From Alphaproteobacteria bacterium (GTDB lineage Bacteria; Pseudomonadota; Alphaproteobacteria; RF32; CAG-239): a DNA stretch of 64,000 nucleotides. The stretch covers positions 1,046 through 65,045 of the forward strand of contig JAFUBQ010000007.1 in the NCBI GenBank assembly GCA_017460085.1, read 5' to 3'. Made by a program: the position numbers and the translations under genes. The notes under the pieces are model-generated. The model had not been told where the DNA came from. It searched no databases and was given only the letters and a program-made list of their open reading frames with translations. Numbering within the stretch: the first letter of the stretch is position 1; every line of letters starts with the position of its first letter. Positions 36,740 to 41,382 of the stretch are shown in pieces.

Positions 36740-36844
36740 AAATTCCTCTTTGTTTTTGCAAAAACTACCTGTATGTTAGCGATTTTATTTTCTTTGTCAT
36801 TATTATTTTACAGTTTTTCAGCAGAATTTTTTTATAAATTTCAG

Positions 36845-36873
36845 TTGACAGCAATAACAAAATGTTGTAGCAT
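36845..36873 (+). promoter_or_regulatory. Sigma70-like promoter of the paralog cluster
   Basis: TTGACA (36845)-N17-TAGCAT (36868); the predicted TSS near 36880 coincides with the start of leader copy 1. Confidence 0.65.
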
Positions 36874-36880
36874 TTATATT

Positions 36881-37029
36881 AGAGCGTTGGTTAGCGCTTG
36901 CTGCCTGCCTTTAGGCAAATCCGGATGGAATAACCGCTTAAATTTATAAAAATAGTTGAAACTCTTAGCAGAAGGGATTTTTGACAGGCAGGCATCAAAA
37001 GTTTATATCCCGCTTAAGGAGTTAAAGCT
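36881..37029 (+). ncRNA. Conserved structured 5' leader, copy 1 (unknown motif)
   Basis: Shares ordered blocks AGAGCG..TTAGCGCTTGC, CCTGCC, AGGCAAATCCGGAYGGAATAA, AAGGGA, AGGCAGGCAT, TCCCG and AAGGAG with 38390-38533. Confidence 0.7.
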
Positions 37030-38379
37030 ATGACTGATACTAATTCCCTTAATTATGAAATTATCGAGCAACTGTTTCAAAACAGTGCGTGTTTAACGTA
37101 TAATCCTTTGGAACCGATGGCGGCATGGCAATATGCCAAAGAACTGCAGCAAAATTTTGAAAAAGAGCATAACTTAAAATATTCGCGCATCTGTTCAAAA
37201 TTTGCTAAAATGCGGCAAGGTCAATATAATGCCCGTTTTCACTATTTTGCCGATGGCACACTGGTGCATTGCTCAGAGCCGCAAAGTTTTTCTGAAAATG
37301 AAACAAATCGCTATGGAACGGAAGATTTAGAGAGAATTATGACGGCGCTCAAGATTCGCCGCTATCCGGTTAATAAAATTTACGGCCCGCAAAATCAAAT
37401 GGATGTGTTTTATTATTCCGATTTTTTACGCTACATTTCCTCACAGGCATTGTTGAAATATTCATACAAAGAAGACTTATATGTTGAGCCACTGCCCAAT
37501 AAAGAAGATTTCGTGCGCGAATGTTTTGCCAACGGCAATATTTTGCTAACCGCCTCAAAAGATGAGTTATTACCGCCATCTTGCCGTGAGTTTATGGCTT
37601 TGTTTGCCGACGGCCGTTATTATGTTTCTGAAGAATATCGCAGCCATTTAGGAACAAAAAATTATGGTAAAGTCAGCCGTTTTGATGCTGATTATTTGTT
37701 GCATTATTGCGTTATGGCCGAAGAATATATTCCGCAAGACTATCTTAATGCTCTTTATAAAGAAGCCGAAAAATATGAGTGGTTTTCTTCTGCTGAAGAA
37801 ACAATGGCAAGAATGCCTAAGCGCACAAATGTTGATGAATTAGTTAAAATGAACAAATACATTGATGATTTATTTAATAACCGCAATTGTTTAACGGTGG
37901 TCAATCCGGATATAAATTCAACTTTTATGTCGCCTGATTTTCAACAATATGCTGTGTTTTCCGATGGTTTAGTGGTTGCCGTATATCATGATGAAGATGA
38001 CAAGCCGTTTATGAAATCGCTCAAAAAATATTTTCCGGATTTAACTTTTCGTTTTGAAAAAATATCAAAGGAATATATGGAACAGCTATACCGCCGCTTG
38101 CCGGAGTTTCAAAAAGGCGCAACGGTAATATATGTTGAAATGCTTAAGCAAAAAGCTCGAAAATTAAAGCGAATGACTGATTTAACGCACATTGAAGCGC
38201 TTGATGTCGTGGCACAAATGGCCGGTTGGCAAAGTTGGAAAGCGGTTAAAATTGAAGATGAAGCGCACGCGCGGGAATTGATTGACGCCGAAAAATGGCG
38301 CAAAAATATGGCGGCAAATTTTAATGCCGAAAATCCGCTGGCGGAAGAATATCGCCGCTATTTGAAGCACCGCAGATGA
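37030..38379 (+). CDS. Hypothetical protein: three 'LT...F(A/S)DG' repeats plus a C-terminal helical domain (Glyoxalase_8/DUF5623-like from memory)
   Basis: Repeat cores HYFADG, ALFADG, AVFSDG; C-terminus LKQKARKLKRMTDLTHIEALDVVAQMAGWQSW; AAGGAG SD. Confidence 0.8.
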   Translation: MTDTNSLNYEIIEQLFQNSACLTYNPLEPMAAWQYAKELQQNFEKEHNLKYSRICSKFAKMRQGQYNARFHYFADGTLVHCSEPQSFSENETNRYGTEDLERIMTALKIRRYPVNKIYGPQNQMDVFYYSDFLRYISSQALLKYSYKEDLYVEPLPNKEDFVRECFANGNILLTASKDELLPPSCREFMALFADGRYYVSEEYRSHLGTKNYGKVSRFDADYLLHYCVMAEEYIPQDYLNALYKEAEKYEWFSSAEETMARMPKRTNVDELVKMNKYIDDLFNNRNCLTVVNPDINSTFMSPDFQQYAVFSDGLVVAVYHDEDDKPFMKSLKKYFPDLTFRFEKISKEYMEQLYRRLPEFQKGATVIYVEMLKQKARKLKRMTDLTHIEALDVVAQMAGWQSWKAVKIEDEAHARELIDAEKWRKNMAANFNAENPLAEEYRRYLKHRR

Positions 38380-38389
38380 TTGATGGATA

Positions 38390-38533
38390 AGAGCGCCGAT
38401 TAGCGCTTGCATCCTGCCCATAAGGCAAATCCGGACGGAATAATCATTTTTAAAACACAACTTTAATCAAAGGGAAAACAGCAATGAGGCAGGCATTGCA
38501 TATCATTCCCGTATTTTAAAAGGAGTATGTGTT
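38390..38533 (+). ncRNA. Conserved structured 5' leader, copy 2
   Basis: Same ordered blocks as copy 1, with a compensatory change in the GGGAW/WTCCC stem. Confidence 0.7.
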
Positions 38534-39940
38534 ATGAATACGCAAAATTTATTAGAAAAATTATTTAACGAAGGCAACTGCTTAACGTATGACTGGAAAT
38601 TTAATGCTCGCCGCAAGACAGAGAAAATGTGCGAGCAATTTATGCTGGAAAATCCACATAGTTTTTGCTTTGTGCAAAATAATAAAGTGCCGCTGCCACT
38701 ATTGAAACACACTGATTTTCAATATTTTTCCAATGGTGCACTGGTTATTTGTATGTGGCCGCAATGTGCCGATGAAGTTACTGAAAAAGCACGAAAAATT
38801 TTAGGATTGCACGGCTATGTTATAAAAGATGTTTATGCTCCGCAAAACAAAGAAGAATGGCAAGATTACTTCAAATTGCTTATTGATATTTGCGATAAAA
38901 CCAGAGAATTACCGGTTAATGATGAAGATTTAACGCTTCGCACCTTTAATTCGCCGGCCGAATTTGCTGACTATTGTTTTAACGGCAGCAATGTTTTACT
39001 CACTGCCTCCAAAGATAAAATTTTTGAGCCGAAATATCGGAAAATTCTGGCATTATTTAGCAACGGATTATATATGGTTGATGAACAATATAAGCATAGT
39101 GATAATTTTTACGGCGATGTGGAAACTAAGTTTTTTGAAGATTGTGTTTGTAATGAGCCGATGCTGCAACCGCTTTATGTGCCGCAAATTTATCTGCAGG
39201 CGCTCTATCAGCGAGCTAAGCAATATAATTGGTACAGTTCGCCTGAAGATGCAGCAAAAAATATGCCGCAAGTTAAAGATTCCGAGCTGGAAACGGCCGC
39301 CCAATATGCCGAAGATATTTTGCCAAACCGCAAGTGTGTCAGCATATTAACACCGCGTATAATTTATAGAGATATATTGCTTGATGAGATTTTAACATCT
39401 CCGGATTATCATCGCTATGTGTTGTTTGCTGACGGTAAATTAGTGCTTTCACAAAAATATTATAGCAATGAAAGAAAACAAAAGCATCTGTTAGAAGATT
39501 TGAAACGGAGTTTTCCATATATGCAATTTGCGGTGGAACTTGTGCCGGATTATTGCATAGATTATCTATATCAAGAAATTTATAAACGGCAAAAAAGTGC
39601 CCGCGATATATATTTGGAAATGATGCGGCAAAAGGCAATGCTTATTAGCACGGTGTTTGGCGTTCCGGTGGTTTTGGCGCAAGATGCGGCGGCACAGTTT
39701 GTCGGCTGGAAAAATTGGCAAGAAATGCAAACCGTAACAATTCCTCATGCCCGACATTTAATTGCCAACCAGCAAAATTTAGATAGACGCATGGAAAAGA
39801 ATGGTTATCAAAATGACGTTATTTATAACGCCATGGCTTATTTTGACCTATTGAAAGCGCAAAATATTCCATACGAAAATTCACAAGCCGTTTATCGGCA
39901 ACTGAAAGCCAATTTGGCAAATGCTAGAGCCAATAAATAA
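38534..39940 (+). CDS. Paralog 2 of the repeat-domain family
   Basis: LFNEGNCLTY, LLTASKD, LALFSNG, SPDY..YVLFADG, IYLEMMRQKA..GWKNW are collinear with 37030-38379. Confidence 0.8.
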   Translation: MNTQNLLEKLFNEGNCLTYDWKFNARRKTEKMCEQFMLENPHSFCFVQNNKVPLPLLKHTDFQYFSNGALVICMWPQCADEVTEKARKILGLHGYVIKDVYAPQNKEEWQDYFKLLIDICDKTRELPVNDEDLTLRTFNSPAEFADYCFNGSNVLLTASKDKIFEPKYRKILALFSNGLYMVDEQYKHSDNFYGDVETKFFEDCVCNEPMLQPLYVPQIYLQALYQRAKQYNWYSSPEDAAKNMPQVKDSELETAAQYAEDILPNRKCVSILTPRIIYRDILLDEILTSPDYHRYVLFADGKLVLSQKYYSNERKQKHLLEDLKRSFPYMQFAVELVPDYCIDYLYQEIYKRQKSARDIYLEMMRQKAMLISTVFGVPVVLAQDAAAQFVGWKNWQEMQTVTIPHARHLIANQQNLDRRMEKNGYQNDVIYNAMAYFDLLKAQNIPYENSQAVYRQLKANLANARANK

Positions 39941-39951
39941 CGGAGATTATA

Positions 39952-40818
39952 ATGATAAATGCAATTATAACGCAAAAAGATGCGGTTGACGAACTGTATG
40001 AGCGCGGAAAAGTTTGCATAACAGCGCATAAAGAGGCTGATATTGATAAAAAATACCGTCCATATTTAGCCTTGTTTGCTGACGGCACATTTTTAGTAGA
40101 TGAGCGTGCTAAGAACGATATTGTTTTGCAAAATTCAGTGCTGGAATTTTATAAAAATTATCCTTCGCAAAAAAGGTTATTGAAACAATATGTTTCGCCG
40201 CAGCTGCTCAAAGCGGTTTATCATCGCGCGCAAAATTTTGACTGGTATTTGCCGCAATATGACATTCCGACAAATTTAAGCACTGCCGACCGGCAAAAGC
40301 TGCAACATTTTTTAAAACGTATGCTGCAGCGGCAATGTTTGAGCATTACCACACTGACAACGCCGGAGTGGTTTCGCTTTTATTCACCCGATAAAGAAAA
40401 ATTTGCCCTTTTTAGCGGCGGAAGATTTGCAGTGTCGCAAAACAATTTGCAAAAAGATGAACTGCTACGCAATATCAGCACACTATATCCGCAAATTGAA
40501 ATGATTGAAATTGTGCCGGAATATTATATTAATGCCATATACGAAAAACTTTTGTATGTAGAACCAAGCGCGCGTGAAATATATATAGGATTGGTGCAAA
40601 AAAAATTGGCTGAGCGGCTGAAAATAGGTTACAATGAAGCTCTCAAAGTGATGCAAAATCAAACTTACGGATGGCGGAAATTGTTGTTTCTTTCAGAACA
40701 AAACGCGCGCTCTATGATATATAGCGACTATGTTGAAAATTGTTTTATGCGTTCTGATGCAGCCTTTGCCGCACAAATGTTTGCAAAAAAAGATTTTCAT
40801 ATCGGCGTTTTTATGTAG
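39952..40818 (+). CDS. Paralog 3 of the repeat-domain family (two repeats, lacks the first)
   Basis: VCITAHK, YLALFADG, NFDWY, SPDKEKFALFSGG, AREIY..YNEAL..GW. Confidence 0.8.
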   Translation: MINAIITQKDAVDELYERGKVCITAHKEADIDKKYRPYLALFADGTFLVDERAKNDIVLQNSVLEFYKNYPSQKRLLKQYVSPQLLKAVYHRAQNFDWYLPQYDIPTNLSTADRQKLQHFLKRMLQRQCLSITTLTTPEWFRFYSPDKEKFALFSGGRFAVSQNNLQKDELLRNISTLYPQIEMIEIVPEYYINAIYEKLLYVEPSAREIYIGLVQKKLAERLKIGYNEALKVMQNQTYGWRKLLFLSEQNARSMIYSDYVENCFMRSDAAFAAQMFAKKDFHIGVFM

Positions 40819-40932: not shown

Positions 40933-41382
40933 ATGAATAATTTCAATGATGAAGGCATGGGCGTGGCAACCGCGGCTGTGACTTTAAATTCAGATAATTA
41001 TGGCATGGGACGCGATGCTACACGGCAATTGCAAAAAGACTTGCAACAACGGCATCCTTTGGTTTATGGCACATCGGAATTTATCGGTGCGATGACCACG
41101 CCGCTACATTTGGTTAAAGATGCCACTTTTGCCAATAAGGCTTTTAATGCGGCAACCGATACCCTCAATGCTTCAGCCGGATATGCTGAAAATTGGAACG
41201 ATTTCGGAACAAATATGCTGGTGAACGGAATAGCAAATGCAGCAGGATTACAAACCGAATACCTACCAATATTCAGAGCTGCAGGCAGACCTCTTGTTCA
41301 GTGGGGTAAAAAGGCTTTTAAGCAAGGTATAAATTTTTCTGCTGACAAAGCTAAAGATATGTATTATCCTAACGAAGATTAA
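40933..41382 (+). CDS. Hypothetical Ala/Gly/Asn-rich protein, possibly a fragment
   Basis: 149-aa ORF with a weak SD; no family recognised. Confidence 0.55.
   Translation: MNNFNDEGMGVATAAVTLNSDNYGMGRDATRQLQKDLQQRHPLVYGTSEFIGAMTTPLHLVKDATFANKAFNAATDTLNASAGYAENWNDFGTNMLVNGIANAAGLQTEYLPIFRAAGRPLVQWGKKAFKQGINFSADKAKDMYYPNED

Follow-up and report, generated by a model that had tools for sequence, protein, structure and literature searches.

A previously undescribed double-pseudoknotted mRNA leader family preceding paralogous orphan genes in uncultured gut Alphaproteobacteria

Genomic Context of the Leader

A structured mRNA leader of about 150 nt was found in two copies in a 64,000-nt stretch of DNA (hereafter the window) from an uncultured alphaproteobacterium assigned by GTDB to the order RF32 and the family CAG-239 (GenBank assembly GCA_017460085.1, contig JAFUBQ010000007.1, positions 1,046 to 65,045 of the forward strand). 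Copy 1 precedes the first, and copy 2 the second, of three paralogous genes (Table 1). Compared column by column, the two copies are 77% identical, and their 21-nt core, AGGCAAATCCGGAYGGAATAA, has exactly two occurrences in the window where 0.02 would be expected; none of 100 shuffled sequences reached two, and elsewhere in the 1.59-Mb genome the core does not occur. All the sequence blocks named in an initial annotation of this stretch were recovered in both copies where it had placed them, and its view that they belong to an RNA leader element adjoining the Shine–Dalgarno (SD) sequence is supported by homologues with covarying helices.

The leader represents a previously undescribed family, and the initial annotation had recognised no Rfam family in it. 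Searching the whole window with the 4227 models of Rfam 15 returned only three tRNAs; with E-values up to 10 allowed, a 2-kb region and the 166-nt leader gave matches to unrelated families alone, the best of them, to a CRISPR repeat model, reaching 20.4 bits where the gathering score is 39. A full-text search of the literature, judged from titles and the openings of abstracts, gave no account of this leader motif.

Table 1. Features of the two leader copies and the adjoining genes (window coordinates; P, helix; PK, pseudoknot helix; "double changes" denotes pairs changed on both sides among type-1 sequences).
Feature	Copy	Position	Strand	Description
Leader	1	36881–37029	+	directly 5' of open reading frame (ORF) 37030–38379
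Leader	2	38390–38533 (to 38536 with ATG)	+	intercistronic; starts 11 nt past the TGA of gene 1; directly 5' of ORF 38534–39940
Sigma-70-type promoter	1	36845–36873	+	TTGACA, 17-nt spacer, TAGCAT; 10/12 consensus matches
P1	1	36882–36886/36895–36899	+	GAGCG-8 nt-CGCTT; 5/5 pairs with double changes; 99.2% of cells paired
P1	2	38391–38395/38404–38408	+	GAGCG-8 nt-CGCTT
PK2	1	36889–36893/36931–36935	+	GGTTA (P1 loop)/TAACC; 97.6% paired; AU 28/GC 21, GC 34/AU 12
PK2	2	38398–38402/38441–38445	+	GATTA/TAATC
PK1 5' strand	1	36902–36909	+	TGCCTGCC; pairs with 36987–36994
PK1	1	36902–36909/36987–36994	+	TGCCTGCC/GGCAGGCA; 99.8% paired; 2 pairs with double changes
PK1	2	38413–38418/38488–38493	+	CCTGCC/GGCAGG; 6 bp
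P1b	1	36920–36929	+	TCC-GGAT-GGA; conserved GCRAA 5', A 3'; CG 29/UA 22 and CG 35/UA 16 at two of three pairs
P1b	2	38430–38432/38437–38439	+	
Linker	1	36936–36951	+	10–17 nt (mode 13), no conserved letters (51 distinct type-1 sequences)
P2 5' (anti-SD) strand	1	36952–36969	+	pairs with 37017–37031
P2a	1	36952–36957/37026–37031	+	ATAGTT/AGCTAT; 6/6 pairs with double changes
P2a	2	38454–38459/38528–38533	+	AACACA/TGTGTT
P2b	1	36960–36966/37017–37023	+	AACTCTT/AGGAGTT; 6/7 pairs with double changes
P2b	2	38460–38464/38522–38526	+	ACTTT/GGAGT
P3	1	36974–36978/37007–37011	+	GGGAT/ATCCC; 6/6 pairs with double changes; 95.3% paired
P3	2	38472–38476/38506–38510	+	GGGAA/TTCCC
P4	1	36979–36984/36995–37000	+	TTTTGA/TCAAAA; 94.5% paired; enclosed by P3
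P4	2	38481–38486/38494–38499	+	GCAATG/CATTGC; inside the P2–P3–P4 nest of the copy 2 minimum free energy (MFE) fold
SD and start codon	1	37016–37021; 37030–37032	+	AAGGAG; ATG
SD and start codon	2	38520–38525; 38534	+	SD; ATG
Gene 1		37030–38379	+	449-aa orphan protein; three repeats probably related to T2SSE N domains, then a basic helical C-terminal domain
Gene 2		38534–39940	+	468-aa paralogue of the gene 1 product
Third paralogue		39952–40818	+	288 aa, two repeats and the C-terminal domain; begins 12 nt past gene 2 without a separate leader

Secondary Structure and Covariation

In total, 85 unique copies of the leader were gathered, 67 resembling copy 1 (type 1) and 18 resembling copy 2 (type 2). 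A covariance model, R1, was built from eight close sequences with nested helices only, and helices were counted on 52 distinct type-1 sequences aligned to it (alignment A7). Since the two pseudoknot helices, PK1 and PK2, were left out of the model, they serve as independent checks.

Covariation supports eight helices, P1, P1b, P2a, P2b, P3, P4, PK1, and PK2. Across them pairing holds in 94.5% of cells, and changes on both sides were seen at 30 of the 42 pairs. The covariation score of 0.327 compares with 0.172 for shuffled alignments, none of 500 of which reached the observed value, and with 0.06–0.09 for slid partners, which left 41–48% of cells paired. In a mutual-information scan that took in every column pair without bias, pairs of P3, PK2, P1b, P2, and P1 came out on top, with P3 pairs ranking first and fifth. 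An alignment-free check anchored by regular expressions could be applied to 82 of the 85 unique copies, the remaining three being without the core; it recovered P1b in all 82, PK2 in 78, and PK1 in 81 at 6 bp or in 64 at 8 bp. G–U pairs that are valid on one strand only, such as the 28 GU at the first pair of P1, identify the forward strand as the one that folds.

The 5' domain opens with P1, the 5' hairpin of the initial annotation, which covaries at every pair. Its loop pairs with a strand lying just 3' of P1b, and this helix, PK2, which the initial annotation had missed, makes P1 an H-type pseudoknot. None of 500 shuffles gave a covariation score as high as that of PK2, and its partner was found in 78 of 82 copies, compared with an average of 42 and no more than 51 in 500 trials in which the partners were permuted. 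The block previously described as almost invariant turned out not to be an unpaired box, since it holds both the 3' strand of PK2 and the 3-bp helix P1b, which occurs in the variants TCC/GGA, CTC/GAG, and CCC/GGG. The invariant unpaired letters are GCRAA, the GGAY loop, and a G and an A at the junction.

Four further pairings involving this domain were considered. A GGC/GCT helix around P1b, taken from a constrained fold, is by eye not kept in relatives. Pairing of the P1 5' arm as an anti-anti-SD (AGAG with CTCT) amounts to only 4–5 bp and, by eye, is uncompensated in CCCTT or AAAG variants. A closing helix that would join the sequence immediately before P1 to codons 2–4 (TATTAG with CTGATA) was dropped, as its 5' strand precedes the position where the transcript is predicted to begin. 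GCTTGC/GCAGGC (36896–36901 with 36989–36994) overlaps the 3' arm of P1 and the P4 loop, shows no covariation, and is mismatched where P1 covaries.

Downstream of a linker whose sequence varies but whose length is constrained, P2a, P2b, P3, and P4 form a long rod. The compensatory change between the 3' stems of the two copies, pointed out earlier, has its counterpart among the type-1 sequences in the covariation of P3. The loop of P4, CAGGCAGGCA in copy 1, bears the 3' strand of PK1, GGCAGGCA, and almost all of it is used by this helix, leaving no nucleotides on the 3' side and one or two on the 5' side. Two independent compensatory variants of PK1 were found, TGTCTGCC/GGCAGACA and TACCTGCC/GGCAGGTA. 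The long-range helix proposed in the initial annotation is thus real and has the pseudoknot topology described there, but the ninth pair assigned to copy 1, T36910–A36986, is by eye not kept in relatives. P1 with PK2 and P4 with PK1 each combine a supported hairpin with a supported helix from its loop to letters outside it, which makes both H-type pseudoknots. On A7, RNAalifold, which cannot draw pseudoknots, returned P1, P1b, and PK1 as a nested helix.

Distribution and Variants of the Leader

A BLAST search with copy 1 at E-values up to 0.01 found matches, some of them partial, in 43 of 201 genomes of the same taxonomic family, representing 12 of its 23 genera. The search of alphaproteobacterial genomes with a covariance model that the initial annotation had proposed as a check yielded homologues: R1 matched 29 of 151 genomes of the family and 23 of 151 genomes of the order, every one of the latter within the same family, and none of 150 other genomes from the rest of the class (149 other families at one genome each, plus one genome of this family). 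A degenerate core pattern run on all species representatives retrieved 50 stretches, and a looser pattern run on metagenome contigs retrieved 37, of which 23 carried 27 model matches. With one exception, the titles of the 50 stretches refer to uncultured Alphaproteobacteria, "proteobacterium", or Azospirillum or Rhodospirillaceae metagenome-assembled genomes (MAGs) from rumen or gut. The exception (L069), the only label outside the Alphaproteobacteria, is a core at the end of a 75-nt contig assigned to Candidatus Gastranaerophilaceae, and this contig is probably mis-binned. The leader is a new RNA family with an unusual architecture, two pseudoknots joined to a rod, and is limited to one uncultured gut lineage.

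All 18 type-2 copies follow the end of an upstream paralogue; gene and leader positions were located in three further genomes, G176, G161, and G196. The 5' domain is near-identical in the two types, while P2 and P4 differ. DNA identity of the 5' domain remains at about 70% where the downstream proteins share just 26–37%.

Two divergent leaders were observed. In the type-1 leader at L096:1321–1477 (forward strand), the whole 5' domain (P1, the PK1 5' strand, P1b, and PK2) is swapped for unrelated sequence and no TTGACA promoter is present; P2–P3–P4 and the GGCAGGCA loop are retained before an 86%-identical gene, and an intact type-2 copy lies in the same locus (L096:2830–2981). It is a natural "sensor-less" variant. 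The leader at L060:1501–1611 (genome G094) has a decayed 5' domain, with mutations in the PK1 strand and P1b, behind a promoter-like site. Beyond it there is a GC-rich hairpin with a T-run, but a homologous gene is missing, and the leader has probably outlived a gene that was lost.

Transcription and the SD Helix

The promoter upstream of copy 1 places the predicted transcript start at about 36880–36881, at the foot of P1. The same geometry, defined as a −35 box with at most one mismatch, a 16–18 nt spacer, and TAnnnT ending 6–9 nt before the first P1 pair, was found in 57 of the 66 type-1 homologues with enough upstream sequence, so that the RNA most likely begins at P1. Type-2 copies have no such promoter and start a few nucleotides past the stop codon of the upstream paralogue. 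Contigs of two metatranscriptome runs from one study cover positions 36910–37218, from the leader into gene 1, and 38154–38552, from the end of gene 1 across copy 2 to the start of gene 2. A terminator scan revealed no terminator-like site on the forward strand within either leader, and control is therefore most likely exerted at translation. On the minus strand the scan flagged 38481–38499, the reverse complement of P4 of copy 2; this call is most likely a by-product of the forward-strand hairpin.

The initial annotation placed the SD beside the structure; it does adjoin the 3' stem, but, together with the AUG, it forms the 3' strand of P2, the helix that encloses P3 and P4. GGAG is followed by ATG 8 nt on in 33 of 36 extracted sequences, the other three being cut by locus ends. 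In an alignment-free calculation on 82 copies, the duplex between the 22 nt upstream of P3 and the SD-to-AUG segment had a median energy of −11.65 kcal/mol, compared with −5.5 kcal/mol for a shuffled strand; the median z was −2.9, with 76 copies below −1 and 56 below −2. P2 is broken by internal loops and G–U pairs. When the pseudoknot letters of copy 1 were barred from pairing, the rod-containing fold had an energy of −33.1 kcal/mol; that of the PK1 duplex alone is about −15 kcal/mol.

Proteins Encoded Downstream

Homologues of the window proteins follow 60 of 65 unique leader copies, and the other five are truncated at a locus end, represent a remnant, or, in L030, precede a partial ORF without a BLASTP match. 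The 107 relatives of the family found in a large protein collection are all hypothetical proteins from alphaproteobacterial MAGs and carry no Pfam domain. For the three paralogues of the window, a Pfam search at E-values up to 1 gave chance-level matches only and no T2SSE_N or GSPII family. The ESM Atlas returned no usable match for the protein family, and Foldseek found nothing in the PDB at E-values up to 0.001 (best E 0.28); the AlphaFold2 model was confident (pLDDT, the predicted local distance difference test, 91.9).

A probable origin of the repeats emerges from comparison within the bacterial family. The family profile matches about 100 residues in an open frame of 550–600 aa in 195 of 201 genomes; in the genome studied this frame encodes a T2SSE ATPase (PF00437, E 1.4e-64) adjoining a PilO-like gene. 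The middle repeat aligns with residues 51–136 of this ATPase with an hhalign probability of 96.4% (E 1e-9, 33% identity over 83 columns). In VIA-align, the third repeat superimposes on the N domains of MshE, PilB, XpsE, and PilF over 61–78 residues with a root-mean-square deviation of 2.2–3.0 and Z of 5.2–6.7 (6.7 for 5htl_B), middling values that lie below the confidence level of the tool. The repeats are probably related to the GSPII/T2SSE N-terminal domains (MshE, PilB, XpsE, EpsE, PilF). In contrast to T2SSE proteins, the controlled protein has no ATPase domain and joins three repeats to an unrelated helical C-terminal domain.

The near-invariant residues cluster at 354–418, which makes this basic domain the best-conserved part of the protein; its weak structural neighbours include CUT, MLLE, and RsaL, with Z of 4.1–4.8, under the meaningful level of the tool. 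The position of the third paralogue suggests that it is translationally coupled to gene 2. At L112 in this genome (G000:C1:62000–66500), genes for the T2SSE ATPase (571 aa), a 499-aa coiled-coil protein without a Pfam family, and the PilO-like protein were found together. This cluster is apparently type IV pilus-like or secretion-like, with the ATPase N domain as the apparent source of the repeats, and the controlled proteins could possibly be adaptors or decoys of such a pilus or secretion machine. The genome encodes one GGDEF protein (C16:16455–16925, 155 bits) and has one sub-threshold match just past the end of the window; no EAL and no DAC proteins were found in it.

A 149-aa ORF without a Pfam family (40933–41382) follows the third paralogue, and the locus is surrounded by housekeeping genes, pyrH, frr, uppS, and cdsA upstream and plsY, dprA, and topA downstream.

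Proposed Mode of Action

We consider it very likely that the leader is a cis-acting structured RNA that gates translation by sequestering the SD and the AUG. Riboswitches combine a conserved aptamer-like structure with an expression platform, and in the leader covariation supports the former, while the latter is seen in the SD and AUG lying within the covarying P2.

Several observations weigh against this interpretation. The nested helices were counted on a model-fitted alignment, and the relatedness of the sequences inflates the shuffle statistics. PK1 varies little, its covariation coming from two lineages, wobble-compatible changes, and one mismatch. On a plain MAFFT alignment (A2), RNAalifold drew only 12 pairs, comprising P1b, a local hairpin, and the non-covarying GCTTGC/GCAGGC; MAFFT misaligns P2 and P3 of divergent sequences. 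The ensemble probability of GGAG being unpaired has a median of 0.22 compared with 0.32 for shuffled sequences and lies below the copy's own shuffled mean in 61 of 82 cases; the drop is modest in part because PK1 and the rod become competitors when folding is restricted to nested pairs. No conserved alternative partner of the anti-SD strand was found among the 82 copies, where the candidate was the 5' strand of P3/P4: this "ON" hairpin, derived from the MFE fold of copy 1 and from RNAalifold on A7, was rejected with a median of −4.5 kcal/mol versus −3.7 kcal/mol for shuffled sequences (median z −0.54; 2 of 82 below −2). The metatranscriptome contigs may hold DNA and show no 5' ends, and positions 36747–36909 are uncovered. 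At least one genome, G164, encodes a full-length homologue of the 449-aa protein (L158, G164:C57, 5446–6711) with no leader, and only a terminator-like hairpin and AT-rich sequence lie upstream of it. In a leader search of five protein-positive genomes, the element was present in G190 and was not found in G164, G016, G029, and G113, of which the last three carry gene fragments at contig ends or with stop codons. Finally, being tied to a single lineage-specific gene family in one bacterial family is equally characteristic of riboswitches and of autoregulatory leaders that bind proteins.

The following mode of action could be proposed for such a translation-gating RNA. Pairing of the P1 loop with TAACC (PK2) closes a compact 5' domain holding TGCCTGCC, GCRAA, and P1b with its GGAY loop. 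The linker leads from it to the rod P2a–P2b–P3–P4, whose P4 loop, GGCAGG(CA), docks on TGCCTGCC through PK1. By default, the rod would keep the ribosome-binding site closed; the double-pseudoknotted 5' domain with the docked P4 loop would be the sensor, and its occupancy would alter the stability of the rod via PK1, setting translation for each paralogue separately. By our own rough geometric estimate, a linker of this length would more or less suffice to bridge the rod, so that PK1 and the full P2 may be either just compatible or mutually strained.

Nature of the Effector

The most likely effector, which we propose tentatively, is a small ligand of the riboswitch type. With slightly less confidence, one could hypothesise that the leader constitutes a new riboswitch class, in which a double-pseudoknot aptamer (P1/PK2 plus PK1) would act as a putative small-molecule sensor controlling, gene by gene, the proteins with repeats resembling the ATPase N domain. 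A signalling nucleotide governing pilus activity may be the boldest concrete candidate for the ligand, since related GSPII domains (MshE, PilF) have been crystallised with cyclic di-GMP (c-di-GMP), according to entry titles, and the genome encodes one GGDEF protein; c-di-GMP itself would be a long shot.

Somewhat less probable than a small ligand is a protein-responsive or autogenous leader, in which the encoded protein, or a conserved one such as the pilus-type ATPase, would bind the 5' domain and stabilise or open the rod, in the manner of ribosomal-protein leaders. In favour of such a system, the leader is tied exclusively to a single lineage-specific protein family, as in the 60 of 65 copies mentioned above, was found in one bacterial family only, and occurs as a separate copy before each of the tandem paralogues, genes 1 and 2. 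The best-conserved part of the protein is moreover basic and helical, with weak neighbours that are DNA- or RNA-associated, although these structural matches fall below the meaningful level of the tool. On the other hand, the 5' domain is near-constant while the proteins fall to 26–37% identity, and it is the same before paralogues that are about 30% identical, a constancy better explained by an unchanging ligand or a conserved factor of the cell than by a fast-evolving protein partner.

We regard it as improbable that the leader has no specific effector and provides constitutively low translation, protection of the mRNA 5' end, a thermometer, or a kinetic trap. The position of P1 at the predicted +1/+2 of the transcript, the interruptions of P2, and the failure to find a conserved alternative pairing of the anti-SD strand are in line with such roles. 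However, two pseudoknots and many invariant unpaired letters far exceed what SD masking or 5' protection needs, and the 5' domain is also kept in the intercistronic copy, where protection of the 5' end is impossible.

Still less probable is the switch suggested in the initial annotation, in which PK1 (TGCCTGCC/GGCAGGCA) would alternate with a local TGCC-loop-GGCA hairpin. This hairpin can indeed be drawn in both copies of the window and in 98.5% of alignment cells, is returned by RNAalifold, and shares letters with PK1, but no pair in it has changed on both sides, its sole varying pair being U–A/U–G, every measure equals that of shuffled sequences, and its fourth pair is absent in 7 of the 52 sequences, leaving 3 bp. 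Moreover, formation or melting of the hairpin leaves the SD untouched, the latter being held by P2. That the blocks act at the level of DNA, as operators or parts of a promoter, or constitute a mobile repeat, as two copies only per genome and an adjoining strong promoter might suggest, is scarcely credible given the compensatory changes in eight helices, the one-strand-only G–U pairs, the fixed position relative to the SD and ATG, and the location of the blocks downstream of the conserved −10 box or, for copy 2, between genes with no promoter.

Comparison with Known Regulatory RNAs

The leader resembles the translational riboswitches SAM-II, preQ1-II/III, and ZTP in its predicted location in the 5' untranslated region, the compact pseudoknotted domain, the invariant unpaired letters, and the SD placed in a conserved helix. 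The ZTP riboswitch consists of two subdomains tied by a long-range pseudoknot, with a sequence-variable linker between them, and the leader has the same combination of a variable linker and a long-range pseudoknot joining two subdomains. Unlike all these classes, it contains two pseudoknots and a long rod of four helices, is associated with a single orphan gene family, and matches no Rfam model.

With autogenous ribosomal-protein and other protein-binding leaders, in which pseudoknots and SD masking are common, the leader shares the tie to one protein family and a narrow phylogenetic range; it differs from them in that RNA binding is not known for the controlled protein and the RNA is conserved far more than the protein. 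The near-fully paired loop of P4 is similar to kissing-type loops, but its partner is a single strand within the second pseudoknotted domain of the same RNA; the steric fit with the full rod was judged by reasoning. Leaders with such covariation and two pseudoknots are rare, and most of them have proved to be riboswitches or sensors of specific proteins.

The bacteria carrying it have small genomes and belong to a family of uncultured, host-associated Alphaproteobacteria, in which the leader is a putative orphan sensor RNA open to test. It also offers a handle on an uncharacterised protein family whose members may be decoys or adaptors of the ATPase of a type IV pilus or secretion system. The two leader types provide a natural comparison, in which the same putative sensor domain is joined to different expression platforms, 5'-terminal in one type and intercistronic in the other. 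If a ligand is found, the leader would represent a new riboswitch class and would give a clue to the signal controlling pilus-related functions in these gut bacteria.

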